This document shows, piece after piece, positions 2,590 to 63,458 of a DNA stretch of 64,000 bases (positions are counted from its first letter, which is position 1; the number at the start of each line of letters is the position of its first letter). Below the pieces are notes generated by a model. It did no database searches. It had not been told where the DNA came from and saw only the letters and a program-made list of their open reading frames with translations. Position numbers and translations under genes: made by a program. Source of the stretch: a virus; IMG/VR virus record IMGVR_UViG_3300045988_119718, positions 32,001 to 96,000 of that record; one strand, given 5' to 3'.

Positions 2590-4837
2590 GTCTCAACCCC
2601 AATTCTGATCCAGCATCATCAATATCTTTCTTAAACATAATTTCATCATTCCACTTAGTCTTGCTATTTACAGCTACTTTGGCCAAATAAGTAATTAGCT
2701 TTCTCTTTAATAATCTTAACTTTCTTTCTTTCTTATAATCTTTACTATCTTCAGCATCTCTGATTCTTCTATCAATCATTTCTAATTCTACTTCTAATTC
2801 ATCAGCAACAGCTTGTCTTTCTTCTTTAGCAGCTCTCTTTGAATTTACAAATCTAACCACTAAAGACAATAACCCTACAAAAGGATGAACTAATACTGAT
2901 AACCCACCAGCTATTATAATAGATTTAATGCATCTAGACATTGATGGTAAGAAACTATTCTTAACTACTTGCATTCTAGCTTCTCTTTTATCTTCTTCTG
3001 TATTAATCTTCTCTATAGTATCAGCGAATCTATCAATGTTGTTCCAAGCTGTTTTTTGAGCATCCATTAATGTAGAAGCAGTTTTCTTTAGTCTATCTAA
3101 ACCTAAAGTTACATAAGATGAAAGTTTCATTTCATGCATAGCTTCTTTAGCTATATTATTAGCTAAAATAGTATCTTCATTATAATACTTAGCTATTTTA
3201 TCAATAGTGTAAGTTCTCATTTTATCTTGATTATAATCTTTGATAGGGATAATATTAGCAGATAGTACTTTTTCATCTGTCTCATCATCATCTTTCATAC
3301 TATCTTGATTTTCATCATGATAATTTTTTACTTTATTTATAATTTCTTTTAAATTAGAAATTTTAGATACATTATCTGGAGTAGTTGTATCTTTTCTAAT
3401 TTCTTTAACCGCTTCATTTAAAGACAATAATAATTTAGATTTATCTATAAGAGGATAATGCTTTTCATAAGACTCTTCAATGTACTCCAATAAGTCTCTA
3501 TCTGCTTTTATTAATAACTCTTTATCAGTAAATGCAGATATAGTGGATTCTTCTAATACATTAGATTGGAATATAGAGCATGCTTCTTCTATATCATCTA
3601 ATAAAGCATTATCATAATCAGTAAATATACCAGTAGGGTTATCATTTACATCATACGGTTCACCTTTTAGATTATAAACTTTTTTAGCATCATAATATTC
3701 AATACTTTTGCTAAGCATTTCTTTAATTTCTTTTATAGCTTCAATCATAACTTGATAAGATTCGCTATTTTGCGGAATCATTGAAGCTTTAGCCAAGAAA
3801 TCATCAACCATATCATATATTTTTTTGATATAACCATTATGGAATTCATCAGCAAATTTTTTATAAATAGTATCTATATATGTATATAATACTCTTATCA
3901 TATCATCTTTATTATTAGAATAATTTGATACTGCAAAATACTGATAATAAAGTGGTAATACTATTTTAGTCATATCAGATAACTCTTGTAAATTAGAAAT
4001 TGAATCAGCAATATCAGAGAATAGGTCTACTACTTTATCTATACATGTAGAATCACCAGTATTAGAAGGTGATACTTCAAACTCTGCTATTTTATCAAAC
4101 ACATCTGATTGCTTTATACGATTACTAATCTGATTATTACCAATAATATCATTAAGCTTTTGTATGAATACAGAATTATATACTCTTTGTGCAATAGAAT
4201 CTAATACTTTAGCAACTATATCTTCAGTTGTATGAGACGGAGGATAAGTACTAAATAAGTATGAATGCACAGTAGGAATTATATATACTAGCTCTTTATC
4301 TTCTAAACAAGTATATGTATTATAATCATATGCTAATTCTTCTACCATTAATGCAAATTTATCTTGTATAGATAATGAATATGTATCTAATAACTTACAA
4401 ATCTCAATCATACCAAGTTGAGGGAATTCACTACCTATTAATATACGTATAGGATTTATATCAGTATTATTTGTTACATTCATTGAAAATATAGATTTTA
4501 TATTAAATCTCTTATTAATAATCTCATGATTAGCTCTAACTCTATTTAAATCTATTTCATCATGAGAAACTTTAGTTAAATCTTCTTTAGCTTTTTCATC
4601 CGTAACATTATCGTAAATACATTTTTTTAATTTATCAAAAGAAATATTATCAGTAGCTATAATAGCTACTATCATTTGCTCTAATAAACTTTTAGGTTGT
4701 TGTAAATACTCAGATTCAGTAACAGGAATAGCATTAGAATATAATTCTAATGCTTTGCTTAACCTACCAATATTATCTGTTCCTAACTCTTTCCAATTTT
4801 GCAATGACTCTACTAATTGTGAAGAATATGGTTTCAT
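2579..4837 (-). CDS. Hypothetical head-morphogenesis-associated protein (752 aa) with C-terminal hydrophobic segment and charged coiled coil
   Basis: Long ORF, translationally coupled to the downstream scaffold-like gene. Segment IIIAGGLSVLVHPFVGLLSLVV followed by a K/E/R-rich helix. No recognisable catalytic motif. Confidence 0.45.
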   Translation of the reverse strand: MKPYSSQLVESLQNWKELGTDNIGRLSKALELYSNAIPVTESEYLQQPKSLLEQMIVAIIATDNISFDKLKKCIYDNVTDEKAKEDLTKVSHDEIDLNRVRANHEIINKRFNIKSIFSMNVTNNTDINPIRILIGSEFPQLGMIEICKLLDTYSLSIQDKFALMVEELAYDYNTYTCLEDKELVYIIPTVHSYLFSTYPPSHTTEDIVAKVLDSIAQRVYNSVFIQKLNDIIGNNQISNRIKQSDVFDKIAEFEVSPSNTGDSTCIDKVVDLFSDIADSISNLQELSDMTKIVLPLYYQYFAVSNYSNNKDDMIRVLYTYIDTIYKKFADEFHNGYIKKIYDMVDDFLAKASMIPQNSESYQVMIEAIKEIKEMLSKSIEYYDAKKVYNLKGEPYDVNDNPTGIFTDYDNALLDDIEEACSIFQSNVLEESTISAFTDKELLIKADRDLLEYIEESYEKHYPLIDKSKLLLSLNEAVKEIRKDTTTPDNVSKISNLKEIINKVKNYHDENQDSMKDDDETDEKVLSANIIPIKDYNQDKMRTYTIDKIAKYYNEDTILANNIAKEAMHEMKLSSYVTLGLDRLKKTASTLMDAQKTAWNNIDRFADTIEKINTEEDKREARMQVVKNSFLPSMSRCIKSIIIAGGLSVLVHPFVGLLSLVVRFVNSKRAAKEERQAVADELEVELEMIDRRIRDAEDSKDYKKERKLRLLKRKLITYLAKVAVNSKTKWNDEIMFKKDIDDAGSELGLRHDD

Positions 4838-4953: not shown

Positions 4954-7221
4954 TTAGAAGTCTTTACCAAAGCATACCTTTTCAAGAGTCTTTACATATA
5001 CCTCAGTAAAAGTGCGTTTCATAACACTTGATGTACCAGTAGGTGCATAATCAGAATAGGGATCACCAAAATTTTCAAGATAATATTTAAGGTTAAGTAC
5101 GTATGGTACAGTATTGCTTGCAATAATGTATTTTGCTAAAAGCTTAGCTGCTTTTCTCTGTCTATTATAGTTGTAGTCATTAAGGGATCTATTAGACCCA
5201 TCTAAAACAAAATAGCAATGCTCGTTATTGGATTCGCTAATATTGCATTTACCAATAAGATTTCCACCCTTAACGATTTCTTTATAAATCTTATAAGAGC
5301 GTCTCTTATGCTGATGAGCAATTAATACATTATTGTATGCATGTTCCATAAACCAAAGGAAAGCAGGGATAAAGTCTCTTTGATAAATAAATTCCGTAAG
5401 AATATAATACATCTTATTGTATTTATTACTATTTGGTCTTTGTTTATTAATAGTTTCCTGTACCTTTTCTTCATTAGTATGTTTATGATCTTCTGCTTTA
5501 GTTTCTTTTGAAACTTCTTCTTCTTTTGGTGAAGATCCTTCAGTATTTTTACCTACAATCTCATCCAGTTTATTAGATAACTCTTTTACAGCTTTGTTGA
5601 AGTCATTCATTGCTTCTTTATTATCTTTTTCTTTTTCTCCATCAAATTCCTGTGTAGCTTTATCATACTTAGGTGCATCATTTTGCATAGATGATGGAAT
5701 ATAATTAATGCTAATTTTCTCCGTAGAAAAACCAGGTGCTCTATAAATATTGATAGGTGCATCAATACCATCAATCGGTTCAATGCCAGTAGTTTTAAAC
5801 ATAATATTTCTCCTTTTCAAAGAATCAGACTCATCATCTACTACGGTATACTGTGAAGAAGATAATCCGACCCAATGCTCATTAAAGCTAGTAGGCGGAT
5901 TTTTAATCTTAACATCCTTAAGTTTAGGACAATTCTTAAACATATCGGTACACCATTTGCAAGATTTCATATCAATGATACCTTTAATAGTAGTAAGATT
6001 GTAGCAGTTTTTAAACATATAAGACATATTTTTTACTTTAGAAGTATCAAAGTTAGATAAATCCAATGTAGTAAGACTAGTACAATCACCGAACATACAC
6101 TCCATATCATCTACATTAGACGTATTAAAACTAGATAAATCTAATGACGTAAGACCATGGCAATTAAAGAACATAAAGCTCATATTGGTTACTTTAGATG
6201 TATTAAAGCCAGATAAATCTAATGTAGTAAGACTACGGCAACTATTAAACATACTACTCATATTAGTTACTTTAGACGTATTAAAGTAAGTAAATAAATC
6301 TAATGAAGTAAGACCACTACAATGATGGAACATATACTCCATATTTGTTATTTTATCATCGATTATAACATTAGCTTGACCTGAAAATTCCAGTATATCA
6401 ATTACATGAGATTCATCAGCCCAAATCTTACTGTACCATGGAGCACTACCTGTAGATAAAAATGCCAATTTGTGATCATACTCATCATCTACTATGGTAT
6501 ACTGAGATTTAGAAAGCCTACTATACTTTTCAAATTTGTCAGGTGGATTCTTAATCTTAACACCTTTAAGCTTAGTACAATTCATAAACATATCACTATA
6601 CCGTTTACATGACTTCATATCGATTACACCTTTAATAGTAGTAAGGTTAGAGCAACCATCAAATATGCTAAGCATATTTTCTACATTAGAAGTATCAAAG
6701 TTAGTTACATCCAATGAAGTAAGACTAGTACACTTACTAAACATAAGACCCATATCTCTTACATTAGAAGTATTGAAGTTGGATAAATCTAATGAAGTAA
6801 GTTTAGAACAGCCACTGAGCATAAAGCTCATATCAGTTACATTAGAAGTATCAAAACTAGATAAATCTAATGAAGTAAGAGAAGAACACTGATGAAACAT
6901 ATTAAACATATCTTTTACTTTAGAAGTATCAAAGTTAGATAAGTCTAATGATGCAAGATTGTAGCAATAGGCAAACATATTCCTCATATTAGTTACTTCG
7001 GATGTATTAAAATTAGACAAATCCAATGAAGTAATACAATGGCATTCATTAAACATACTGCCCATATTAGTTACACCTTTGCATGTAACTGTAGCTTGAC
7101 CAGATATAGATTCATCCATGTTAATAAATTTATCCTCATCAACCCACGGCATCCAATAATAATTACTATCAGTAAACCATGGAGCATTACCTTTGGCTAT
7201 ATATACCTGCTCTTTAGACAT
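4954..7221 (-). CDS. BspA-type leucine-rich-repeat (LRR_5-like) surface/adhesin protein, 755 aa
   Basis: About 14 tandem ~23-aa repeats of the form LTSLDLSNFDTSKVTNMSFMF.C. Two repeat blocks, each preceded by a 'G.APW....ES.SGQA.V' module. RBS AAAGGAGAAG before ATG at 7221. Confidence 0.8.
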   Translation of the reverse strand: MSKEQVYIAKGNAPWFTDSNYYWMPWVDEDKFINMDESISGQATVTCKGVTNMGSMFNECHCITSLDLSNFNTSEVTNMRNMFAYCYNLASLDLSNFDTSKVKDMFNMFHQCSSLTSLDLSSFDTSNVTDMSFMLSGCSKLTSLDLSNFNTSNVRDMGLMFSKCTSLTSLDVTNFDTSNVENMLSIFDGCSNLTTIKGVIDMKSCKRYSDMFMNCTKLKGVKIKNPPDKFEKYSRLSKSQYTIVDDEYDHKLAFLSTGSAPWYSKIWADESHVIDILEFSGQANVIIDDKITNMEYMFHHCSGLTSLDLFTYFNTSKVTNMSSMFNSCRSLTTLDLSGFNTSKVTNMSFMFFNCHGLTSLDLSSFNTSNVDDMECMFGDCTSLTTLDLSNFDTSKVKNMSYMFKNCYNLTTIKGIIDMKSCKWCTDMFKNCPKLKDVKIKNPPTSFNEHWVGLSSSQYTVVDDESDSLKRRNIMFKTTGIEPIDGIDAPINIYRAPGFSTEKISINYIPSSMQNDAPKYDKATQEFDGEKEKDNKEAMNDFNKAVKELSNKLDEIVGKNTEGSSPKEEEVSKETKAEDHKHTNEEKVQETINKQRPNSNKYNKMYYILTEFIYQRDFIPAFLWFMEHAYNNVLIAHQHKRRSYKIYKEIVKGGNLIGKCNISESNNEHCYFVLDGSNRSLNDYNYNRQRKAAKLLAKYIIASNTVPYVLNLKYYLENFGDPYSDYAPTGTSSVMKRTFTEVYVKTLEKVCFGKDF

Positions 7222-13464: not shown

Positions 13465-15870
13465 TTACTTTTTCTCCGTTACACTTTTAATTACTTTTCT
13501 AAGTATTGGAATACGTCTCTTTTCAAACGTCTTTACTAACTTTACGTTTTCAATGAGTTGTTCATCTGTATTTGAAATCTTAAGAAGAGAATTAATAGCA
13601 TTATTAATTTTTTCTTCTTTGGATACTTCAGAATTTCCTAATACTTTAATATCAGTACTATTATCATACATATCCACCAGCATAGCTCTAGCTTTATTAT
13701 AGCCTTCACCAGTAACTTTAACAGGTAATTTAGTAATGACCTGTCTGTATGAATCTGGTTTAACTCTAGAGATAGCTCTTCTTAAAATTGGGACTCTAAG
13801 TTTCTTAGGAACTTTCTTGAATTCCAATTTAAGACCTAAGCACTTTAAATATGCATTAGCTATTTCTACATTTCTAGATTTAGCATTTTCATCCAATACA
13901 ATATTTCTATCGAATGGATCACCAATCAATAACTGCTTCATCATTCGTCTAGCTGTTGGAGCAGTAGACAACATCATGAGAGCTTCTACAGTGAACTGGC
14001 ATTCTGGTAACTGCATTAACTCAGATGCTTCCATACCACCAATTCTAACTGGAGTTTTAGCTATTGGAGAAATATGCATTTTATTAGCTTTAGTCTTAGT
14101 ATTCTCACCTCTAATATTGGTAGATGCCAATGATACAGCAGAGAACTTTTCTTCAGCTAATTGTTTTAGACGGTAGATATATTTCTTACCAACTACTAAT
14201 GGTCTATTAGTTCTAATCTTTCTAATATTACCGTTAGAATCTTTCTGATTGACGTACAGATACTCTTCTTTAATCCATGGGAATGTATTATAGATATTCT
14301 TAAGAATCTCTAATGTCATCTCATTTTTCATTGGAGTAATTACTACAGGAATATTTCCACTTTCTATGAGATAATCCATATCTTCAACTCTTACTTCAAT
14401 AGGAGTAGACATAATGATTCTATGAAAATCTGTAGCATAATCCATATTAATCAAAGAGAGATATTTAAGTACAGTTTGCTCAGCGACATCGACAACAGTC
14501 GATCTATTAAGATAAGACATGCCCTCCATCAAATCATCATGCTTAGCAGGATACCAATACGTACCAATAGCTTCAAGAAGTTTAGAGCCAATCCAAGTCA
14601 GTTCAGTTTCAAATGACTGACCTGGATTAAGTCTGTTGATAATGGTAGAAGAGTTATAAATTGCATCTACTGGATACCAATTACCATTTCTATAAAATAA
14701 TGGCATTTGATCATCTGGTAAGATAGCGGAAATAACACCTTTACCACCATATCTATCTGTAATCTTATCACCTTTACGCAGTACTTTATTCTCTCTAGTG
14801 ATAATTCTCAGAATGATATTATTGAATACTTTGTCTTTGATATATGGAATACCATTAGCTGTATCTCTGCACTTACGATATACAGATTGCATATCATAAG
14901 TCATTTTAACCCCAGGATGACTATCTAAGAATTTATCAACTGCTTTATAGAGCTTAATACAGAAATCAATATTCTTATCATAATACTCTTTAAGCTGCTG
15001 ATAATACATATCTTCTAGTTTATCTGGGTTATTGCAATATACATCAATATCAACAATTTCCCCATCGGAAATATATGTAGTATCAGAAATCATTAGCTGT
15101 TTAAGTCTTTCTTTAGACTGACTATAAAGAGCTTCATCATCTTTTCTTTCTCTTCTAATAGCACATACAATAGAATCTTTAATCTTCTCTCCGATATTTG
15201 GGAAAGCTTTGTAATAGGTATCATCTCCATACATATTCAATGGGATATCGTTTTCATTAATTACGATTTCAATCTCGTTAAACAATGGGGATTTAAACCT
15301 ATTAGCTGCACTCTGACTAATTACAATAGGGTCTTCTGTAGTCAACCCTAATGCCATATAAACAGTAGTAAGATTAATACCATCAGTCTTATTATCTTCT
15401 TCATCAAATGAATCAGATTTAACCAATGTAGTTCCTTTAGGAATTGTATCTCCTTTATTGAAACTATCTAATCCATCATTGTTTATATTAATACCATAAA
15501 TCTCTGTACGATATTCATAAGTAACTCTTTCTACACAATGAAGCATCTTATGTTCAATATCGTACAATAATGCATAATACTTATTCGCATACTTATAAAT
15601 CTTATCAATCAGTTTATACTGAGCATCTGTTTTAACGTAGTTAGAAGACAAATATGCAAATTTATTTTCATAACCAGTCATAATAATCGGTGTTTCAGCT
15701 TTACATAATTGAATGGATTGTTCTTTCTGAATTCCTTGCATAATCTTTCTGGAACCAGAATTAGTATCATTAAACGGTTGTAATAAGCCTTTACCTAGCG
15801 TATACTCACGCGATGGTAAATTCTTTTCAATTTCATTAGCAGTACTATTTAAATCCAAATTATTTGCCAT
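13465..15870 (-). CDS. Multisubunit RNA polymerase beta subunit, C-terminal half (split rpoB-like, jumbo-phage type)
   Basis: DRYGGKGVISAILPDDQMP...VDAIYN...RLNPGQSFETEL matches rpoB GRHGNKGVISKI.P.EDMP...VDIVLNP...RMNIGQILETHL. N-terminal FNDTNSGSRKIMQGIQKEQSIQL...ETPIIMTGYE matches the rpoB NMQRQAVPL region. GGMEASELMQL matches GEMEVWALEAYG. Confidence 0.8.
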   Translation of the reverse strand: MANNLDLNSTANEIEKNLPSREYTLGKGLLQPFNDTNSGSRKIMQGIQKEQSIQLCKAETPIIMTGYENKFAYLSSNYVKTDAQYKLIDKIYKYANKYYALLYDIEHKMLHCVERVTYEYRTEIYGININNDGLDSFNKGDTIPKGTTLVKSDSFDEEDNKTDGINLTTVYMALGLTTEDPIVISQSAANRFKSPLFNEIEIVINENDIPLNMYGDDTYYKAFPNIGEKIKDSIVCAIRRERKDDEALYSQSKERLKQLMISDTTYISDGEIVDIDVYCNNPDKLEDMYYQQLKEYYDKNIDFCIKLYKAVDKFLDSHPGVKMTYDMQSVYRKCRDTANGIPYIKDKVFNNIILRIITRENKVLRKGDKITDRYGGKGVISAILPDDQMPLFYRNGNWYPVDAIYNSSTIINRLNPGQSFETELTWIGSKLLEAIGTYWYPAKHDDLMEGMSYLNRSTVVDVAEQTVLKYLSLINMDYATDFHRIIMSTPIEVRVEDMDYLIESGNIPVVITPMKNEMTLEILKNIYNTFPWIKEEYLYVNQKDSNGNIRKIRTNRPLVVGKKYIYRLKQLAEEKFSAVSLASTNIRGENTKTKANKMHISPIAKTPVRIGGMEASELMQLPECQFTVEALMMLSTAPTARRMMKQLLIGDPFDRNIVLDENAKSRNVEIANAYLKCLGLKLEFKKVPKKLRVPILRRAISRVKPDSYRQVITKLPVKVTGEGYNKARAMLVDMYDNSTDIKVLGNSEVSKEEKINNAINSLLKISNTDEQLIENVKLVKTFEKRRIPILRKVIKSVTEKK

Positions 15871-53520: not shown

Positions 53521-56500
53521 ATGGATTATGAAACCTTGATAAATCTAAAGTTCAAACGAACTGAAGGTAGTGTAGATTTAACCAAGTCTAAATGGTCTTC
53601 AGTAGTAATAAATGAAGCTAACTATAGAGAAGAAACGGTGGACTATAGTTCAGCTGGAAGATTTGATAACGGAGAAGCCGCATATTTAGACGGTGAATTT
53701 TCGGTTATTAATAAGATTACTGGCAAGAACCTAAGCCTAGATTTAAATGCGGACGAATTTACGTTTGCATTATGGGTAAACTGTGATTTTACTAAGATGA
53801 ATATGAAGCAGTATTTACTCTGCGGTAATAATCAAATTAAAAACTCTAATAACTCTATATACCTACAACCAGACAAATTTAAAACTAATATGTCTATAGT
53901 ATTAGTTTCATCTACTGGTACTAAAATAGAAATTCCATTTATTGAAAATAGTGGATTAATATTAACTGGTAGATGGGTATGGCTAAGATTAACTAAATCT
54001 AATGATAATAAAATTAATTTTTATATAAATAATGAATTAATAGGAACTTCTAGTGTTATAACTTCTTCTTTTAAATTAATATTTAATAATAATGAAACCT
54101 GCATAGGTAAAGGCTATGATGCTGATTATCTGTATTACCCACATTTTAAAGGATATATAGATGATTTTGTATTAGTAAAAGGATTATCATATAATAAAGC
54201 TAAAGTACCTAGTACATATTTCTTAAATGAAATAGATCCATCTTTATTAGAAGATGCAGCTAATGTATGGGATGAAAAAGAAAGAGAATTTTCACAGTAT
54301 GATTCTATTACTAATGCAATAGAATGGAAAAGGTTTAATACTAAAGAAGAAATAGATAAAAGAGAACAAGCTTTAATTCCATATATGCTTACTCCTATAT
54401 GGAAACAATGCGATATTAATCTTCCTACTTGGATTAAACCTGTATTAACCAATCCTTATAGAATCAATGATAAAGTAATTTATAATATAAACCAAATTTA
54501 TAATAATACTATAGACTTTAATACAGAATATCCTGATGCAGCTAATGGGTGGAAACTCATTCATAATACCTTAGATGATATTAAAGAATGGGAAAAACCT
54601 AATAAATACTATAATTATATGGATAAAGTGTTATATAATAAGAGAGTCTATCAATCTCAAGTAAATTATAATACAGAGTTACCAGCTGCATGGATGGTAT
54701 TAACGGCTCTTACTAATTCAGAAAAAGAAGAATTAGATGATGATATCTATAAATGGAATAAAGAAATAGAATATGCATTTAAAGATAGGGTAAAATATAA
54801 TAACAAATATTATATTTCTATTATGAATAATAATTTAGGGTATATACCAGGAGATACTACATATTGGAAAGAAGTAGGTGGTGGTACCAGTTTTATTACA
54901 GATTGGGTTAAGCCTACTACTTACAAAAATGGAGATATAGTTTCTTATAATGGTAAATATTATCATTCTAATATCGATTATAATATCTTAACTCCAGGTA
55001 ATCATCATGTAGAATGGACTGAAATAACTTATTGGGAACAACCAAAGTATAAAAATGTATATGTAGATGGTGATAAAGTATTCTATAAAGGAAAGACTTA
55101 TATTTGTAATTTAGCTAAAGATAGTTCAGGAAATTACAAATACCATGAATACTCTATAGTAGCACCAGATAAATATGTAAATAAAAAGTATTATAAAGCA
55201 TTATATCATATAATCCCAGAAGGTGGGAATTACTATGATCCAAGAGATGTAGAATCAATATTTTGGCAGGAAATACCTAAAACTCAAATAACAGATTACT
55301 CATTATATAAGGAATGGGTTAGAGGTAATGTATATAATACTGGTGATTTAGTAGTAGCTACTGATTATGACTGGAAACAAACTTTTATATCTGAAGGGTT
55401 CTTCCAGAATAAGCAGTTTACTATAGATCGAGATGATACCACTATTAAGATTAAACTCTATGATGCTTGGGATAATCATTATTTGAGTAATGATAAAGAT
55501 AGAATCTATTTTAAGAAAAACTATCTAGAAGCATTTAATCTAATTGAAGTTGATGGATATATCTTAATGATAAATAATAAATTTATTAAATGGACTGATA
55601 TAGATATAATTAGATCAGATAGATTTGTAACTTTATCTATTAAAAAACCATCTTCATTTGTAGTTAAAGATGTGGTATTAATTAGATTACCATGTAAAGT
55701 TATTTATTCTGAAACTGGATATATGCCAGACAATGGTATTAAACTGTTTGGTTTTGATACTAATGGCAATTTTGGTAGTGATATAAATATCTATGCTGTA
55801 AATAATAGACTTAGAGAATTAGTTTATACTGATACTAAGTTTGATAATATATTTATAGATACAAACTTAGATCATAAAATTACTAGGTCTAATCTATTCG
55901 TATTTGATGAAGATGGTAAATTCATAACTAGAGATAATTATACTATCTCTTCTGCTAATATATTTACCTATATACCTATTGATACTGATAAAAAGTATAC
56001 TTTATATTGTATATGGGATGATACAGAGAACTCTAATGAAGATAATTTAGCTTTAATACCTAATGATATTAGAGTTAGACAATATCTTAGAAATTATAAT
56101 ACCAATACAAATATGGATAATGATTATCCTGTAGATTTGCAGCAATTAAATAAAGAGTTTGATTATAGTGTAGTACGGCATACTAGTGATAAACGTTATG
56201 ATGATAATATCTCTAATTCTATGAATGGTATATTTAATTATAATAAGAATAAGTTTGATTCTGTATATGAAGAAGTAAGACCAGTAAACATAGAGGAATA
56301 TTCTGAGGCTTATATGAACTCTTTAAAGAGAAATATAAGGATAACCATAGATGAAACTAATTTGCCTCAATTACTTCATTCTTATATAGTAGAAGGTACT
56401 GACTTAATAGAACTTTGTGATGAGAATAAAAATAAATATATTGGTAAAACAGTAATAATGAAATTAAGACAATATCTTTCGGTTACTCTTACTAAAAGTA

Positions 56501-58119
56501 ATATAGATTCTTATGTAGGTAAAGTAGCTATAGATGGTTCTGATAATATCATTATTACAGAAGATAATAAGAATAATCTTATTGGTAAAACAGTTAAGTT
56601 TAATACTAGTGGTTTATTTATTGATAATACTGTAAATAATTTTGATAGTATTATAATGAGTAGAGATATTTATAATAAGTATGATTATAAAAACAATACT
56701 TATGTAATGCTATTTAAACGTGGTATGCTGCCAGAATGGTATAATAAAATTCAATATACCAATGATAAATTCTATTTCACTGATATACCTAGAGCTGATT
56801 ATAGGACTATTTATATGGAAGAGTATGAAAAGCAATATATCCAAGTAATGGGTAAAGAAGGGGAATTTTACAATGGTAAAACTACTAGATCGTTTAAAGT
56901 AGAAGATGGGACTGATTTTGAAACTGGTTATGAAATATCAGTAATTGCAGATTATGGCTATACAGCTGGTAAGGTTAAAGAATCCCCTGGTATTGTAACT
57001 AGTGATTCTTGGATTAGAGCTTATGAACCAGAAATAAACTTCTATACTGTAACTGTAGTTACCTCTCCTCATCAACATATTAAAGCCACTATTATCAGCA
57101 ATAAAGAAGGATATGATTTATCTACTTTGGAAAAATTATCATATACTGATACTACATTTAGAGTTCCTTACAATACTACAGTTAATTTTGAATTAACTGC
57201 TGATAAAGGATATACAGCTGGAGAATTAAATTATAACTCTATTGTTGTAACTAAAGATACTACTATTAAAGCTGCAAGAGAAGCAGACACTAATGATTAT
57301 ACTATTAGAACAGCTAATTTGTATAAAGATATTATCGATATAAGTATAGAATATAAAGATAAAGAATATAAAGATGTTACTGTTAATGCTAAATATGCTG
57401 ATACATTTAAGGTCATTATAAAAACTCTTAACGATAGATATGTATACAATGGAATAGAATATAATGAAGATACTATGCACAAAAATGATGATGGTTCATA
57501 TACTTTATTAGAAGATACTGTGATATCTGTAAAACAACCATTAGAAAACGCTCATAGATTCTATATCTACGATAACTCTGATATGGATATAACCGCTAAA
57601 AATTATGGCATTGATAATAAACTGATATCTTCTTGCAGTATAAATGAAGATATGAAAATTATTAATAGAGATATAATTAAAGTCAATGTTAAGCCAAATA
57701 GTAATTATAATGCGGCTATTCCATTATTAATAGAAGGTACTCCTAAAGCATTAGTAAAGCCTGATAACGAAAATAACCAAGCTGAATTAAATTACACTAT
57801 TACTGCTGGAGAAACAGATATTAGTATTAGAGCATCTGATACTAAGATTAGATACTTTACTATTAATATTCCTAATAAAGATAATCAGACTATTACGATT
57901 AAATATGTAAACCCAGTTGATAGTGGTACTTATACTACTATTAAGTCCGTAAGTGTACCATATGGTACTATATATACAATTACAGTAACTCCGAATGAAG
58001 GATATAATGCTGGTACAGCTAATCCTTCTAGTGGTACAGTAACCAGTACTGTAAATATCAATGTAACAGATGCTACTAAGATTAGATATAAAGTTTACCT
58101 TAATGCTGGCAATGGTTAA
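53521..58119 (+). CDS. Giant fibre/receptor-binding protein (1532 aa) with N-terminal LamG/concanavalin-like jelly-roll and C-terminal Ig-like repeats
   Basis: FTFALWVNCDF...GRWVWLRL pattern of LamG_3-type lectin domains. Repeated ...GYTAG... Ig-like modules near the C-terminus. RBS ATAGGAGTAATAAT. Confidence 0.6.
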   Translation: MDYETLINLKFKRTEGSVDLTKSKWSSVVINEANYREETVDYSSAGRFDNGEAAYLDGEFSVINKITGKNLSLDLNADEFTFALWVNCDFTKMNMKQYLLCGNNQIKNSNNSIYLQPDKFKTNMSIVLVSSTGTKIEIPFIENSGLILTGRWVWLRLTKSNDNKINFYINNELIGTSSVITSSFKLIFNNNETCIGKGYDADYLYYPHFKGYIDDFVLVKGLSYNKAKVPSTYFLNEIDPSLLEDAANVWDEKEREFSQYDSITNAIEWKRFNTKEEIDKREQALIPYMLTPIWKQCDINLPTWIKPVLTNPYRINDKVIYNINQIYNNTIDFNTEYPDAANGWKLIHNTLDDIKEWEKPNKYYNYMDKVLYNKRVYQSQVNYNTELPAAWMVLTALTNSEKEELDDDIYKWNKEIEYAFKDRVKYNNKYYISIMNNNLGYIPGDTTYWKEVGGGTSFITDWVKPTTYKNGDIVSYNGKYYHSNIDYNILTPGNHHVEWTEITYWEQPKYKNVYVDGDKVFYKGKTYICNLAKDSSGNYKYHEYSIVAPDKYVNKKYYKALYHIIPEGGNYYDPRDVESIFWQEIPKTQITDYSLYKEWVRGNVYNTGDLVVATDYDWKQTFISEGFFQNKQFTIDRDDTTIKIKLYDAWDNHYLSNDKDRIYFKKNYLEAFNLIEVDGYILMINNKFIKWTDIDIIRSDRFVTLSIKKPSSFVVKDVVLIRLPCKVIYSETGYMPDNGIKLFGFDTNGNFGSDINIYAVNNRLRELVYTDTKFDNIFIDTNLDHKITRSNLFVFDEDGKFITRDNYTISSANIFTYIPIDTDKKYTLYCIWDDTENSNEDNLALIPNDIRVRQYLRNYNTNTNMDNDYPVDLQQLNKEFDYSVVRHTSDKRYDDNISNSMNGIFNYNKNKFDSVYEEVRPVNIEEYSEAYMNSLKRNIRITIDETNLPQLLHSYIVEGTDLIELCDENKNKYIGKTVIMKLRQYLSVTLTKSNIDSYVGKVAIDGSDNIIITEDNKNNLIGKTVKFNTSGLFIDNTVNNFDSIIMSRDIYNKYDYKNNTYVMLFKRGMLPEWYNKIQYTNDKFYFTDIPRADYRTIYMEEYEKQYIQVMGKEGEFYNGKTTRSFKVEDGTDFETGYEISVIADYGYTAGKVKESPGIVTSDSWIRAYEPEINFYTVTVVTSPHQHIKATIISNKEGYDLSTLEKLSYTDTTFRVPYNTTVNFELTADKGYTAGELNYNSIVVTKDTTIKAAREADTNDYTIRTANLYKDIIDISIEYKDKEYKDVTVNAKYADTFKVIIKTLNDRYVYNGIEYNEDTMHKNDDGSYTLLEDTVISVKQPLENAHRFYIYDNSDMDITAKNYGIDNKLISSCSINEDMKIINRDIIKVNVKPNSNYNAAIPLLIEGTPKALVKPDNENNQAELNYTITAGETDISIRASDTKIRYFTINIPNKDNQTITIKYVNPVDSGTYTTIKSVSVPYGTIYTITVTPNEGYNAGTANPSSGTVTSTVNINVTDATKIRYKVYLNAGNG

Positions 58120-58128
58120 ACTATTGTA

Positions 58129-58773
58129 ATGAATCCGGCTTTGAATAGCGATGGGACTTATGATTGGGGAACTAAATGGTCTGCTACATTAGTTGCATGG
58201 AAAGGATTTAAAGCTGGTAGTATATTTAGTGCTACTAGTGGTACTTGCTATAGCGATATATCAGTAAATGCTACTGCTGCATCATTAACTACTGAGTTAT
58301 TATCAGTTAAATACCATACTCCAACTAACAAATATGGGTTTGCTGGAAGCGTTTATGGTCAACAACAGACCGAATATAACCAGATTGGGATACAAACTGG
58401 TATTAAATTACTGAATAATTACGCAAATGAGCCACAAAAATGGGTGGAAATACCAAATAATTTCCATCCTGGCACTTATAATATATCCTACTTACGGACA
58501 TATTATAATGCTATACGTATAACATGCCCATACCAATATTCATGCATTAACATTGATACAAAATGGGTTAATACATCTGATAATGGTAATGGTAATGTAC
58601 ATGGATTTAAAATTATAGATGAGCAGTGCTTAAAAGGATTTTCGATAGCAGGTGGCGGCGGTGATAGAGGCCACTATGGTGAAGGGCAACTACATGTAAC
58701 ACTTACTGTTCCTGGAATTTCTGGTAGTATATCTTTTAAAGCTATTTGGGCTATAAAAAGAAAGGGTTTATAA
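58129..58773 (+). CDS. Hypothetical fibre-associated protein (214 aa)
   Basis: ORF between two fibre genes. Confidence 0.45.
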   Translation: MNPALNSDGTYDWGTKWSATLVAWKGFKAGSIFSATSGTCYSDISVNATAASLTTELLSVKYHTPTNKYGFAGSVYGQQQTEYNQIGIQTGIKLLNNYANEPQKWVEIPNNFHPGTYNISYLRTYYNAIRITCPYQYSCINIDTKWVNTSDNGNGNVHGFKIIDEQCLKGFSIAGGGGDRGHYGEGQLHVTLTVPGISGSISFKAIWAIKRKGL

Positions 58774-58776
58774 ATT

Positions 58777-59326
58777 ATGACAACAACTTTAAAAGGAACT
58801 ATACGGGGGGGGGGTAACCTTTAGTGCCTCTCCAGCTATAATTATACCAAAAATACACTACTACATAGCTAAAGGCTCTAGCCCATGGTATAGTAGTTAC
58901 TGGAAGGATAAGAAATTAGTTACTAATGTAGATGAATCTGTATCTGGGCAAGCTACGGTTACATGCAACACTATAACAGATACGTACTATATGTTCTTTA
59001 ACCTCTCTAATCTTACTACAATAGATTTATCTAATTTCGATACATCTAAAGTAACTGTTATGGCTGATATGTTTGCTCTTTGCTCTAATCTTACTACAAT
59101 AGATTTATCTGGCTTTGATACTTCTAAAGTAACTAATATGAGTTTTATGTTCTATAACTGTTCTAACCTTACTACTATTAAAGGCACTATAGATATGACA
59201 AATTGTGTAAGTTATCACAATATGTTCGATGGTTGTACCAAGCTTAAAGATGTTAATATTATGAATCCACCGGCAAACTTTAATGATGCTAAATTGTCTC
59301 CTTCTCAATATACCATAGCATCATAG
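58777..59326 (+). pseudogene. BspA-type LRR protein paralog, out of frame at a G10 homopolymer (candidate phase-variable gene)
   Basis: ATG at 58777 reads MTTTLKGTIRGGGNL* through G10 (58805..58814). With G9 the frame reads ...YIAKGSSPWYSSYWKDKKLVTNVDESVSGQATVTCNTITDTYYMFFNLSNLTTIDLSNFDTSKVT... to 59326. This is collinear with the N-terminus and repeats of the 755-aa LRR protein. Confidence 0.6.
58805..58814 (+). repeat. Poly-G tract (G10) inside the 5' end of the LRR paralog
   Basis: Directly visible: cggggggggggtaacc. Confidence 0.9.
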
Positions 59327-59358
59327 TATAAATTTAAAAAAATAAAGTAAACTATATG

Positions 59359-59400
59359 CACTGTATCTGTTCCAGGAATGATAAATTAGAATTCCTGGAA
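59359..59400 (+). terminator. Rho-independent terminator
   Basis: gttccaggaatgataaattagaattcctggaac followed by acatttta. Confidence 0.6.
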
Positions 59401-59447
59401 CACATTTTAAACTATTATTTAACTAATAGAAAGGAGGAAAATATTAA

Positions 59448-62400
59448 ATGCCATATGATTATACAACTAATATTCCTGGATATGAAGTTTGTTATTTCAG
59501 AAATATTTGTAATGAAGTTATTCCTTACCCTAAAGATGGGTTAGATTATCTTCCTATAAAAAATAATAATTATTATATACCAGAAAATGATATAGTAATT
59601 TATACCACAGTAAAAGGAGAATATAATCTCTGCCCTATAAAGTATACTATAGATAGAATTAATAATAAGATTATAGTAGATCCTAAATACAAAAAATATA
59701 AATTATATTATGGATCTAGAAATCAGTTTTTGTATCAAAGAATTCCACTACAGTTCCCAGTTCAATCTATACCTTTACCGTATAAATTTAGAACTGGGTA
59801 TAATGAAAATAATTATTTTATATTTGTAAATGGTAGATTATTAAACTCAGCTTTCTATAAAGTATTGATTCCTAATTTAGAGGATAATAGAATAGAAAAT
59901 AAAGTTTTATATTTATCTAAGCCTATATCCTCTGATGATACATTAGATGTATTTTATATCGGTAATAATGCGTTTACAAGAATTAATGGTACTGGTGATT
60001 TAGTGGTTAAACCATTTAGAGTTAAAGCCACTGAACCAATACAAAGATTATTTAAGATACCTAAACCATATAAAGATTATCCAGTAAATGATTATAACTC
60101 ATTTATGATATTTAAACATGGTACTAGAATTAGTACAGATAAGTACAATATCATTTCTATATACAATAAAGAAACTGAATCAGTTGATTATTATATAGAT
60201 TTATTAGATATAGATGAGTATTTAATCTATGATGATGATTTAATATTTATATTTCCATACTATAAAGCAGAGTGGGAAACTACTAATGCTATATCTAAAA
60301 CTAATCCATTAAAGTTTATTACTCTATATAAGAAAACTACAACTAATACAAATACTGTAGTATTTGATTCTTCTTCTATAGGAAATTTTACTAATGATGA
60401 ATTTATTTATGTATTTGAAGAAACTAAACTTTTAAATACTGATGAATATTCTGTAGTAGGTAAGAATACTATTCGATTTAATAAAACTATACCAGCAAAT
60501 ACAGAATTAGCTGTAGTTATAGAATCCGATAAAGATGATATTACTAATGATTCTACTATATTAAACTATCTTAATATACCAGTAATGAATGATGGTCAAT
60601 GGTTTTTTAATGTTCCTACTAATAACTTCAATGAATATTTTTTATTTAGAAATGGCGAATTAGTTCCTAAGGATCATTATTCTATTTCTAATAAAAAACT
60701 TATATTCGGTAGAAACTATAACGATTTACGGGCAGGGGATACACTTACAGCTGTATACGCTAATGATGGTTCAGAAGATATAAATAGTATCAATCTTCAT
60801 GAGTACAATGTTACAGCTAAAGCGGATAATGAAATTATAGTTCCTAATGATGTAGGTATTAAATATACAAATGAAAATATTATAGTATTTATTGATAATA
60901 GATTTATAAGCAATACCTACTATAATATTATTGGTAATACTATAGAATTCAAAGATAATATAGTAGTAAAAGGTAGTGAAGCTAATATTTATTTAGCTTA
61001 TAAAACTATAGATAGCTCTAAAATAAATTATAACTTAAATAAATCCAGTGTAATTCAATTTATAGAGCAGAATAATACAGTAGAATCTGATAATCAATCT
61101 ACATTTAAAATTAATTATCCAGATAGTTTACCAAAATATGTAGTTGATTGTCCAGTATTAGTATTCATTAGAGGTATACTAGTAGCTGATGCTAATTATA
61201 CTATTACTAAAGATGATGAAAATACCGAAGCTGTATTAAAGCTTAATTCTAAATATTCTTCAGTATTAAAACAAGGAGATATTATCGATTTTGTATTCTG
61301 CTATTTACCATCTTCAGGCTCAATATCTAAAAAAGAATATGAAACTAAATTATCTTCTAAAACTATTCAATTACCATATGTATATGCTGAACCTATAGAC
61401 TTATCTGAAAGAGTATTAGTATTTATTAATGGTAGTTTTATAGAGAGTGATAATTATACTATAGATAAAACTAATCGTACTATTACTCTTAACGATAATA
61501 TAACCATAAATAAAACTAGTGATATAAACTTTGTATTTTTATATACTGGTAGTAATACTTCTGGCTCTGTAGGATATGTACCCCAATCTGGGTATTTATT
61601 CTTCGATGAGCATACTATAGATAGAAACTTAAGTAATGAAATGATGATGGTATTTGTCAATGGGTTATTAGTTCCTAAATCAGAAATACATGATATTTCC
61701 AATTCTCTTAAAAAGATAACTAGAAATATTAAAACAAGATATGATTTAAATATTGTAACTTGTTCTCCATTAGTAACTGAATTTAAGAAACTATACGACC
61801 CAGAAAATAACTCATTAAAATATAGATTTGAAATCATTCAAACTCCAAATCAAATTATTAAAGTTTCTATAGATGATAAAGTATATTATAATTCCTTTGC
61901 TTATAAGAGCGGAGAGATTAGTAAATTTAAAGTAGAAGTTATTCCTAATAAAGGATATATAGCTGGTAAATATACACTGGATGGACAAACTAATTACAAC
62001 TTATCTTGGCTGGATGATAATCATACCATAACTGCTACACCAGCTACTAAAGGAACTATGAGCAAAGTTACTATTAAACAATCTTTAAATCAAATGATAA
62101 GTGTAACCTGTAATGGTAAAACGTATAATACTGATTTTGAAGATTTAGTTGGTAGTGACCTTATAGCAAATATAGTTTCTACTAGAGATGGATTTACTCC
62201 TGGGGTTATAAGTATGAGTAGCACTAAGATTACTAGTAGTGGGGTTACTGTATCTGCTGCTAATGCTACTATAGAGACATTTACTTTAAATATTTTAAAT
62301 AAGAACTTAGATAATCAGGATATATCAATTAGAATTACTAATCCTAATACTGGGGAAGTAATAGTTAATAACGTTAAAGCTCCATGCAATCTTACTAATA

Positions 62401-63065
62401 TTCCATTTGGTAGTAAATTCATAGTATATGCTAAAGCTAACAGTGGTTATAGAATAGGAAGTAGCATTGGGCCTTATAAGTTAAACCAAATGTATTACAT
62501 AGATTATAAATACCCATTAGATAACTTAGTAGTAGATCCTGTATCTAAGGTTACATTCCATACAGTAACTATGACACCAGCTAATAATGTAACTCTAGTT
62601 ATGTATAACTGGGATGAATATTCTGATAATGGTAAGACTAGATATGAATGTAGGGATGTAGTAGAAAAGGTAAAAGTAGCTGATGGTAGTATATATGAGT
62701 TTAAGGTAGAACCAGATTATGAATATAGTAGTGGTGCTATAATTTCTTCTACTGGAGAATTAGCTGGTGTAGTAAACACAGATATTTCTGTAACTACAGA
62801 AGATGCTGTAAAAGAATTACCTATTGTAATTATAGAAAGGGAAAATAATGTCTCTGAATTTTATAGCATTAAAGTAGAATTTTCTGATAACTATCATCCA
62901 GCTGGTGAAGGTATTTATAGAATATCTGAAGGTACTTCGTTTACAGCTAGATGTATATTACATGGCGTAGTAAATTATTCTATAAATGGTATAGTAGAAT
63001 CTGGAGTTAATAGAATTAAATTGCTTCAAGACGGTACTATTAATATTTCTAAAGAAGAGGTTTAA
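59448..63065 (+). CDS. Fibre protein (1205 aa) built from ≥7 tandem ~90-100-aa repeat modules plus C-terminal Ig-like domains
   Basis: Recurring F(I/V)F(V/I)NG.(L/F)...(Y)..(I/L) cores: FIFVNGRLLNSAFYKVL, FMIFKHGTRISTDKYNI, YFLFRNGELVPKDHYSI, IVFIDNRFISNTYYNII, VLVFIRGILVADANYTI, LVFINGSFIESDNYTID, MMVFVNGLLVPKSEIHDI. RBS AAAGGAGGAAAATATTAA. Confidence 0.6.
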   Translation: MPYDYTTNIPGYEVCYFRNICNEVIPYPKDGLDYLPIKNNNYYIPENDIVIYTTVKGEYNLCPIKYTIDRINNKIIVDPKYKKYKLYYGSRNQFLYQRIPLQFPVQSIPLPYKFRTGYNENNYFIFVNGRLLNSAFYKVLIPNLEDNRIENKVLYLSKPISSDDTLDVFYIGNNAFTRINGTGDLVVKPFRVKATEPIQRLFKIPKPYKDYPVNDYNSFMIFKHGTRISTDKYNIISIYNKETESVDYYIDLLDIDEYLIYDDDLIFIFPYYKAEWETTNAISKTNPLKFITLYKKTTTNTNTVVFDSSSIGNFTNDEFIYVFEETKLLNTDEYSVVGKNTIRFNKTIPANTELAVVIESDKDDITNDSTILNYLNIPVMNDGQWFFNVPTNNFNEYFLFRNGELVPKDHYSISNKKLIFGRNYNDLRAGDTLTAVYANDGSEDINSINLHEYNVTAKADNEIIVPNDVGIKYTNENIIVFIDNRFISNTYYNIIGNTIEFKDNIVVKGSEANIYLAYKTIDSSKINYNLNKSSVIQFIEQNNTVESDNQSTFKINYPDSLPKYVVDCPVLVFIRGILVADANYTITKDDENTEAVLKLNSKYSSVLKQGDIIDFVFCYLPSSGSISKKEYETKLSSKTIQLPYVYAEPIDLSERVLVFINGSFIESDNYTIDKTNRTITLNDNITINKTSDINFVFLYTGSNTSGSVGYVPQSGYLFFDEHTIDRNLSNEMMMVFVNGLLVPKSEIHDISNSLKKITRNIKTRYDLNIVTCSPLVTEFKKLYDPENNSLKYRFEIIQTPNQIIKVSIDDKVYYNSFAYKSGEISKFKVEVIPNKGYIAGKYTLDGQTNYNLSWLDDNHTITATPATKGTMSKVTIKQSLNQMISVTCNGKTYNTDFEDLVGSDLIANIVSTRDGFTPGVISMSSTKITSSGVTVSAANATIETFTLNILNKNLDNQDISIRITNPNTGEVIVNNVKAPCNLTNIPFGSKFIVYAKANSGYRIGSSIGPYKLNQMYYIDYKYPLDNLVVDPVSKVTFHTVTMTPANNVTLVMYNWDEYSDNGKTRYECRDVVEKVKVADGSIYEFKVEPDYEYSSGAIISSTGELAGVVNTDISVTTEDAVKELPIVIIERENNVSEFYSIKVEFSDNYHPAGEGIYRISEGTSFTARCILHGVVNYSINGIVESGVNRIKLLQDGTINISKEEV

Positions 63066-63071
63066 AATATT

Positions 63072-63458
63072 ATGAATACTAATATAAGAACCAAAGTCGT
63101 AAACGATACTAATGAATTGATATTTAAAAATAAAGATTTGTTAGTAGATAACTCTCCTGACTCAGATACTACTATTGCCGCGGATAATGTAACTGTAACC
63201 ATAGTTCAACCTAAAGATACTAAGTATAGCATTATAGTTTATATCATGGAATATAGACGAAGTGATGAAGGGGATATCTTTGAAGCTGATACTGATGAAG
63301 GGCATAAGGAAACATTTAAAGCTGCAAAAGGAAGTGTATATTTAGTAGTATTATTGGATAATACTACTAATAGTACTTCTACCGACTATTATCGTCTTAA
63401 TACATCTTCTAGAGGTAAACTTACTAGCGACATAACTATTAAATTTAAAGATGAATAG
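63072..63458 (+). CDS. Hypothetical protein (128 aa)
   Basis: ORF 6 nt after the fibre gene. RBS AGAGG. Confidence 0.45.
   Translation: MNTNIRTKVVNDTNELIFKNKDLLVDNSPDSDTTIAADNVTVTIVQPKDTKYSIIVYIMEYRRSDEGDIFEADTDEGHKETFKAAKGSVYLVVLLDNTTNSTSTDYYRLNTSSRGKLTSDITIKFKDE

Follow-up and report, generated by a model that had tools for sequence, protein, structure and literature searches.

Does a run of ten G residues that breaks the reading frame of a viral gene mark a ruined gene, an error of assembly or a switch? The run lies in a stretch of 64,000 nucleotides (nt), called the window here, that covers positions 32,001 to 96,000 of the IMG/VR virus record IMGVR_UViG_3300045988_119718, and it interrupts an open reading frame (ORF) for a small leucine-rich repeat (LRR) protein of the DUF285/BspA type, located directly after a large fibre-like gene. 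We conclude that the G tract is probably a slipped-strand contingency locus, acting as an on/off switch for a small accessory protein encoded after the variable tip of the fibre-like protein. The elements of the proposed switch, in order, are the following.

58761 to 58766, plus strand: Shine-Dalgarno-like AAAGGG, 10 nt before the leader ATG (sequence reading).
58777 to 58804, plus strand: leader, consisting of ATG plus eight codons (MTTTLKGTI) and the C that opens codon 10 and abuts the tract (sequence and frames).
58805 to 58814, plus strand: the G10 homopolymer, GGGGGGGGGG, the proposed switch, here in its OFF phase (sequence reading and homopolymer count).
58822 to 58824, plus strand: TAG closing the 15-aa peptide of the OFF phase (translation of the G10 state).
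58814 to 59326, plus strand: body frame of 170 codons, from GTA (the V of VTFSASPA) to the TAG at 59324 to 59326, encoding a conserved head motif and, after it, a capped LRR domain of the DUF285/BspA type.

The ATG at 58777 stands 3 nt past the stop codon (TAA, 58771 to 58773) of the preceding ORF, and the tract begins 28 nt into the frame that it opens. With ten G residues, this frame encodes MTTTLKGTIRGGGNL and terminates after 15 amino acids (aa). Translation of the other lengths gave a DUF285 (BspA-type LRR) protein of 182 aa at G9 and of 183 aa at G12, and peptides of 12 to 13 aa at G8 and G11 (13 aa at G11). The body frame in the G10 state has no start codon until the ATG at 58991, which opens the 111-aa ORF listed for this region (58991 to 59326). 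The window has a composition of 30% GC (13.6% G, 16.5% C), and no other run of at least seven G or C residues occurs in its 64 kb, the runner-up being a C6 at position 28649; words of eight G residues are found only within the tract, while dinucleotide-preserving shuffles gave a mean of 0.09 matches. An earlier note on this DNA had described a 10-G run nine codons into an ORF that starts 3 nt after the preceding stop, a 15-aa product at G10 as opposed to one of ~183 aa at G9 or G12, and the absence of any other long G-run from the window, and all of these observations were borne out by our reading of the sequence, the homopolymer count and the translations.

All sequences that we compared with the window are metagenome assemblies, and the tract lengths are assembled consensus values. 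A search with the repaired protein, in which leader and body are joined, retrieved orthologs at 86-90% identity, all of them called as 174 aa and starting MGGGVT at the tract. At the level of DNA, loci with the same leader architecture carried tracts of five different lengths, given here by locus.

G8: L011.
G9: L009 and L010.
G10: L008, and the window with L007.
G11: L001 to L006.
G12: L017.

The window is identical to L007, with G10, and L006, which has the same leader, has G11. Loci L001 and L017 could be compared over 6552 bp, in which there were no mismatches and a single 1-nt gap, located in the tract (G11 vs. G12); L008 and L011 showed no mismatches over 2733 bp and a 2-nt gap in the tract (G10 vs. 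G8), and L021 and L022 no mismatches over 7258 bp and one 1-nt gap in a G tract. When every difference between near-identical loci was listed, all indels of 1-2 nt fell in poly-G tracts. The same length was also recovered repeatedly, with G11 in three samples (L002, L003, and L004) and G9 in two studies (L009 and L010). Counted over 40 non-redundant tracts, after removal of duplicate records, the lengths were G8 once, G9 seven times, G10 18 times, G11 11 times, and G12 three times; 12 of the 40 (30%) were in frame with the leader, and 28 were out of frame.

The same variation can be read from public protein databases, where clusters P0001, P0002, P0004, and P0026 hold the same gene at called lengths from 85 to 183 aa. 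Among the 90%-identity protein clusters, the called length and N-terminus imply the state of the tract as follows.

182 aa, starting MSQTL.GTIWGGVT: G9.
183 aa, starting WGGGVT: G12.
174 aa, starting MGGGVT: G11.
173 aa, starting MGGVT: G8.
111 aa, starting MFFNLS (P0121, identical to the window ORF at 58991 to 59326): out of frame.

A control cluster of DUF285 proteins that lack the leader-derived head, P0047, was uniform, with 8 of 10 members called as 226 aa from the same N-terminus, whereas the head-bearing clusters P0001 and P0026 were heterogeneous. The called lengths depend on the assembled tract length and constitute a systematic annotation artefact of head-bearing genes. Among 145 retrieved DUF285 homologs, 17 were continuous from the leader, 26 started at or just after the tract, 10 were truncated calls of the OFF type, and the rest were head-less.

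Both the gene body and the tract itself are maintained. The 510-nt body contains no indels across four lineages, and its ratio of nonsynonymous to synonymous substitution (dN/dS) is 0.17-0.35 at a dS of 0.09-0.30, indicating purifying selection on the body even though most of these contigs have a consensus in which leader and body are in different frames. ON alleles of the window's own haplotype exist, namely P0125, L009, and L010, all at G9, and the body of P0125 is identical to that of the window; continuous leader-body proteins were present in many lineages (e.g., P0053, P0007, P0026, and P0125). An uninterrupted run of G8 to G12 was kept in 24 of 24 distinct head-bearing genes. Since GGG is a rare codon, accounting for 9.7% of Gly codons in the window, and the run is nevertheless kept in every one of these genes, the homopolymer itself is maintained. 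The sole exception is contig L018, of the L002 lineage, in which the tract is interrupted as GGGGTGGGGG (3040 to 3060); either a genuine mutation that stabilises the tract and locks the switch or a mistake of assembly could account for this. The 17 distinct leader sequences found in relatives keep the pattern M-x-T/Q-T/S-L/M/I-K-G-T/I/V, and their variability by codon position (entropy 1.03 at the third position, 0.79 at the first, and 0.42 at the second) is greatest at third positions and is therefore of the kind expected of translated sequence. Every leader in the relatives is also preceded, at the same site, by AAAGGA, AGGAGG, or a similar purine box.

The tract shows the following properties of a simple-sequence-repeat contingency locus: a run of at least seven within an ORF, a change of frame with length, polymorphism among otherwise identical genomes, and purifying selection together with upkeep of the run against base composition. 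The earlier note had proposed slipped-strand phase variation and had pointed to homologous phages as the place to look. Those phages carry the same gene with G8, G9, G10, G11, and G12, and the differences confined to the tract, together with an intact and selected body, support its proposal. The note had also named two outcomes that would speak for an ordinary explanation. One was a uniform G9, that is, an assembly error in a simple intact gene, and independent assemblies instead gave reproducible lengths from G8 to G12. The other was a dead pseudogene, which we rejected on the basis of the relatives, given the lack of indels, the dN/dS of 0.17-0.35, and the existence of G9 ON alleles.

We propose that the polymerase slips on the G run during replication of the phage DNA, so that a G would be added or lost. 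In the window lineage, only a length of 9 or 12 would join the nine-codon leader, with its own Shine-Dalgarno sequence, to the 170-codon body; G9 and G12 would thus be ON, and G8, G10, and G11 OFF. At G10 the ribosome would stop after 15 aa and the body would not be made, making the window an OFF allele, and replacement of the tract by GGTGGAGGT codons would lock the gene ON. A phage population would then be expected to consist of a mix of particles with and without the protein. The ON product of 182 or 183 aa would combine a flexible head of ~22 residues (the leader, two or three tract glycines, and VTFSASPA) with a small capped LRR. The head may serve to dock exchangeable binding modules onto the virion, and the switch may vary host recognition as a form of bet-hedging. 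A docking role of the head is suggested because it is predicted to be disordered and yet is conserved, because it sits on unrelated domains, and because the gene follows the most divergent part of the fibre-like gene.

Several points weigh against this interpretation. We infer the mixture of lengths within one population, the rate of slippage, and its reversibility, and the terms receptor-binding and adhesin, like a location on the virion, would follow from gene position and fold only. An ON fraction of ~30% is what random drift over three frames would give, and so the sampled populations give no sign of a preference for the ON state. Short-read platforms tend to make errors in long G runs, and since no A or T run of at least eight occurs in the compared regions, the comparison had no internal homopolymer control. 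The meaning of a given length may also differ between lineages. In the window lineage, the C at 58804 precedes the tract and no start codon is formed there; in lineages with a T at this place, AT and the first G make an ATG whose frame matches that of the body at G8 and G11, so that such lineages may have two productive phases, or the tract ATG may be the real start.

Among the alternatives, the one that survives best, although we consider it unlikely, is that slippage occurs at the level of RNA or the ribosome, through stuttering of RNA polymerase or a ribosomal shift on GGG-GGG-G, with the DNA length only tuning the amount of product; this could coexist with switching at the DNA level. Every frame of the G run reads GGG (Gly), so re-pairing of the tRNA would be perfect, the phage has genes for a multisubunit RNA polymerase of its own, and a mostly out-of-frame consensus combined with purifying selection is easily explained if OFF alleles leak product. 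Set against this, G10 needs a shift of +1, G11 needs -1, and G9 and G12 need none, and no single programmed direction fits all of them; the best-documented cases of efficient transcriptional slippage involve A/T runs; past the tract, the fold of the RNA is no more stable than that of shuffled sequence (z = 0.18), and no stimulatory structure is present; and variation of length in the DNA is observed directly. On the same two grounds, a shift direction that is not fixed among relatives and the downstream fold (z = 0.18), we rejected the tract as a programmed ribosomal frameshift site. A G-quadruplex was also dismissed, by reasoning, since one G run cannot form an intramolecular quadruplex.

That this is an ordinary intact gene whose tract is always in frame, at a single length of G9 or G12, with the different lengths reflecting homopolymer errors of sequencing or assembly, is quite improbable. 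The reliance on metagenome assemblies and the errors that long G runs cause on short-read platforms lend this explanation some weight, as do the odd interrupted tract in L018 and the fact that L023, which differs at two tracts, has a coverage of only ~5.5x per its contig name. The lengths nonetheless recur across independent samples (G11 in L002, L003, and L004; G9 in L009 and L010, from two studies), they spread from G8 to G12, and a tract out of frame is the rule (28 of 40) and not a rare deviation. Errors would also leave unexplained why a homopolymer of a rare codon is conserved in 24 diverged genes at 30% GC.

Still less probable is that the leader is a separate mini-ORF and that the protein starts at the tract, with an ATG, GTG, or TTG that includes its first G, or later, the tract length regulating translational coupling. 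Gene callers do start 24 of the 145 homologs at MGGG or MGG, and where a T precedes the tract, the AAAGGA within the leader is spaced like a Shine-Dalgarno sequence, 5-6 nt ahead of the ATG at the tract. Against this, 17 of the 145 homologs, from many lineages (e.g., P0053, P0007, and P0026), are continuous leader-body proteins, the leader is conserved as a peptide, and a start codon at the tract is missing from the window lineage and from several paralogs. The least credible explanation is a dead or dying pseudogene, a fixed loss-of-function frameshift in a redundant paralog: the window lineage lacks a tract ATG (C at 58804) and is out of frame in both of its assemblies (G10 in the window and L007, G11 in L006), and the same contig has a nonsense mutation in the neighbouring fibre-like gene, but the body is free of indels at a dN/dS of 0.17-0.35 across lineages and is identical to that of a G9 ON allele (P0125), and the tract shows no decay by substitution in any of the 24 genes.

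Returning to the slipped-strand switch, we characterised the protein that it would control. The repaired protein matches Pfam DUF285 (PF03382) with 64.2 bits against a cut-off of 25 (E = 1.2e-17) and LRR_5 with 29.2 bits against a cut-off of 27.7. A second protein of this type is encoded at the other end of the window.

4954 to 7221, minus strand: 755-aa paralog with two DUF285 modules, without the leader and without a poly-G tract (profile and BLASTP).

By BLASTP, the repaired protein is collinear with both DUF285 modules of this paralog (E = 1e-33 to 3e-39; 39-54% identity), which upholds the collinearity claimed in the earlier note; as a correction, the gene lies on the minus strand and not on the plus strand. 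AlphaFold2, with an alignment of 50 homologs, gave a mean predicted local distance difference test score (pLDDT) of 89.6 and a confident capped LRR for residues 28-182, while residues 1 to ~22 (the leader, the glycines, and VTFSASPA) scored <50 and are predicted to be disordered on their own. In Foldseek, BspA-family LRR proteins of metagenomic myoviruses matched the model at E = 2e-11, and the solved LRR surface protein 4gt6 of a gut Firmicute was a weak fold match (E = 0.02). On these profile matches and models, the product is a DUF285/BspA-type LRR protein with a predicted LRR solenoid fold. A fecal phage fragment at 40% identity, MT839659, contained no poly-G.

In more distant relatives (L012, L014-L016, L019-L023, L029, and L035), which were found by a scan for DNA patterns and by look-ups, between two and five neighbouring genes each carry the same 5' cassette, an arrangement that goes beyond what the earlier note described. 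The cassette consists of the Shine-Dalgarno sequence, the ATG, a leader of 8-9 codons (M-A/S/P/T-T-T-L/M/I-K-G-T/I/V-I, or MSQSISGVIV), a tract of G9-G12, and a conserved peptide, which is usually (V/T/L)T(F/I)(S/T)ASPA and is NIYSSPT in the MSQSISGVIV genes. The domains behind this head are unrelated to each other: we found DUF285 LRRs, three kinds of 130-150 aa domain, a protein of 204-259 aa, and one of 435 aa, and searches of the non-DUF285 paralogs against Pfam and PHROGs gave no match above threshold. Several small proteins of 130-150 aa behind the head in L012, L014, and L021-L023 share the C-terminal motif Y(I/V)GVTP...(Y/W)SPEIN..TP..TDY, and these proteins, which match no known family, may represent a new family of small binding domains.

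Three of these loci, L021, L022, and L023, are the same phage in three samples, in which tract 1 reads G10, G9, and G9, tract 2 reads G10, G10, and G11, and tract 4 reads G10, G10, and G11, respectively. Individual tracts of one phage thus differ independently between samples. Pattern searches for further copies were mostly negative. The exact poly-G pattern had 0 matches in IMG/VR, and a degenerate pattern for the leader, which had a gap of fixed length and fits only G9 with T or G before the tract, had none in IMG/VR or in GTDB genomes. A looser pattern, G9-N(2-9)-TTTAGTGC, matched 15 loci in viruses and 80 in genomes, nearly all of which were chance matches in unrelated genomes; the real cassette was present only in L029 and L035, two loci of the same 231-kb IMG/VR contig. 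The loci in metagenome-assembled genomes that matched the looser pattern contained no leader-plus-poly-G cassette, and we drew no inference about the host from them.

These arrangements lead us to suggest, tentatively, that this clade of gut jumbo phages may possess a portable "switch-and-dock" cassette. In related genomes it heads two to five neighbouring genes per examined stretch of ~4-12 kb, with unrelated putative binding domains (the DUF285 LRR, three small beta-rich ones of unknown type, and the 435-aa protein). Its copies would flip independently to give combinatorial decorations of the virion, as a viral counterpart of Neisseria opa, and all of these proteins would plug into a single docking site, on the fibre or the baseplate, through the disordered head that they have in common.

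The phage itself was identified from the surrounding sequence. Over the stretch compared, the window locus is 100% identical to the ENA contig k119_143398 (252,690 bp; sample ERZ27229725). The window encodes split RNA-polymerase-beta-like ORFs (13465 to 15870 and neighbours), an NAD ligase, a helicase with 33% identity to the helicases of Bacillus phage AR9 and of Staphylococcus jumbo phages, and, upstream of the region with the fibre-like and DUF285 genes, a PhiKZ-vertex-like structural protein. Because of the RNA-polymerase-beta-like proteins, the NAD ligase, the PhiKZ-vertex-like protein, and the AR9-like helicase, we assign the source, by gene content, to an uncultivated jumbo phage of ~250 kb. 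A megablast search with positions 57500 to 60500 against GenBank phages gave no match, and tblastn with the repaired protein against 50,697 phage records matched only Listeria, Butyrivibrio, and fecal fragments, with none from Campylobacter. The phage has no close relative among GenBank phages.

The order of genes around the switch is the same in all close relatives: a 313-aa structural protein, the fibre-like protein of ~1746 aa with CBM5/12 repeats, the DUF285 gene, and a 1205-aa protein. The DUF285 gene thus sits between the 1746-aa CBM5/12 fibre-like gene and the 1205-aa gene, and none of the neighbours has a proven tail-fibre annotation. Three features flank or follow it.

53521 to 58773, plus strand: fibre-like gene with CBM5/12 repeats, split here by an in-frame TAA at 58117 to 58119 (profiles and relatives).
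59368 to 59402, plus strand: perfect 12-bp hairpin (GTTCCAGGAAT...ATTCCTGGAAC) 3' of the DUF285 gene (RNA fold of -20.6 kcal/mol, z = -3.05).
59448 to 63065, plus strand: 1205-aa protein without a family match, syntenic in all close relatives.

The TAA divides the fibre-like gene into parts of 1532 aa (53521 to 58119) and 214 aa (from the ATG at 58129, in the same frame). In relatives, this gene encodes one protein of 1722-1748 aa, and L006 has CAA where the window has TAA. The C-terminal 214 aa are the most divergent part between lineages, with 66-68% aa identity vs. 93-95% for the rest. The window strain therefore carries a nonsense mutation just before this most variable tip, and the tip is probably receptor-binding. 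A recoded stop codon at 58117 was rejected, given the CAA of the sister contig and the normal reading of long ORFs in code 11. When the 214-aa neighbour was used to search IMG/VR for relatives, no confirmed locus was obtained. The hairpin may be a terminator and mark the end of the transcript; it was not called by a consensus terminator scan.

We also observed local rearrangements. In the lineage of the window and L008, 29 nt are deleted where the fibre-like gene ends and the Shine-Dalgarno sequence of the DUF285 gene has yet to begin (window 58750 to 58760 vs. L006 2700 to 2790); the deletion alters the last residues of the fibre-like protein and places the DUF285 ATG 3 nt past its stop codon. 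Between the window (58760 to 58790) and L008 (520 to 560), the Shine-Dalgarno sequence and the first four codons diverge locally (ATGACAACAACT vs. ATGCCGCAAACT), with small indels in the Shine-Dalgarno region, while the flanks are 99.7% identical; this patch of divergence at the cassette suggests recombination or patch replacement. Past the 1205-aa gene, a 128-aa ORF at 63072 to 63458 matches only the N-terminal module of a protein of 511-638 aa in L001 and L002 (containing DUF285 in L001), the remainder of which has been replaced or lost in the window, which makes the region past the 1205-aa gene a zone where LRR genes are swapped.

For the surface antigens of bacteria, phase variation is textbook knowledge; experimental demonstrations in phages are very few, namely Fletchervirus and, recently, T2 and T4. 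The locus described here adds comparative evidence for phase variation in an abundant family of uncultivated human-gut jumbo phages, which in the relatives involves whole sets of putative host-binding modules. If the switch operates as proposed, one assembled genome under-describes the host-recognition repertoire of such a phage, gene callers systematically mis-annotate these genes (called lengths include 111, 173, 174, 182, and 183 aa), and arms races between phage and host could be tracked through metagenomic time series by a simple marker at the level of reads, the poly-G tracts. The case also shows that a frameshift in a gene of a metagenome-assembled phage is no ground for dismissing the gene as an error or a pseudogene.

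Among bacteria, the opa genes of Neisseria carry CTCTT repeats in the shared 5' leader of a multigene family. Bacterial contingency families of this kind resemble the phage genes in having the repeat just past the start codon, one (or two) productive phases out of three, and paralogs that switch independently; the phage genes differ in lying in a virus genome, where the phage's own replication machinery would act on them, and in that the paralogs share only the head of ~20 residues. Phase variation by poly-G itself has been described in bacteria for lgt genes (PMC2192423) and for the N-terminal poly-G tracts of Campylobacter cj1421 and cj1422 (PMC8713573). With the DUF285/BspA LRR surface proteins (PF03382, PF13306; solved structures 4gt6 and 4h09), the phage protein shares the Pfam match and the predicted capped LRR solenoid; it is, however, very small (~four repeats), has no signal peptide or cell-wall anchor, and has a phage-specific head that is predicted to be disordered.

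In T2-like phages, the gp38-type adhesin is a small protein located at the tip of the fibre, where it determines host range; its gene comes right after that of the distal tail fibre. The DUF285 gene likewise is small and directly follows a very large fibre-like gene, at its variable C-terminal end, but it has no similarity to gp38 in sequence or fold, and we infer its attachment to a fibre only from this position.

The closest precedents for the switch come from phages. In Fletchervirus phages of Campylobacter, tracts of 7-11 G residues in receptor-binding genes create phenotypic diversity (Sorensen et al. 2021, as described in 10.1101/2025.10.21.683753). As far as that description goes, the likeness extends to a lytic phage, G runs of ~7-11 in host-recognition genes, frameshifts, and mixed progeny, the last being a proposal in our case. 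The two systems belong to different phage lineages and have no sequence relationship, as judged by the lack of a Campylobacter phage match in tblastn, and the tract described here, which is known from sequence alone, is part of a conserved 5' cassette on unrelated genes. In T2 and T4, homopolymer contingency loci undergo reversible frameshifts and produce population heterogeneity (Gomez, Barrick and Waters 2025, bioRxiv 10.1101/2025.10.21.683753); the coliphage runs, defined as homopolymers of at least six bases, occur in genes of all classes and are under-represented in tail-fibre genes (10.1101/2025.10.21.683753). In contrast, the runs of G9-G12 described here are kept against a composition of 30% GC and are concentrated on putative host-recognition modules. 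Full-text searches of the literature turned up no description of poly-G switching for gut jumbo phages or for the DUF285 genes of phages. The proposed mechanism would thus be of a known kind, placed here in a new phage lineage and a new gene family, and what distinguishes it is a shared cassette of leader, poly-G tract, and putative docking peptide on heterogeneous paralogs.

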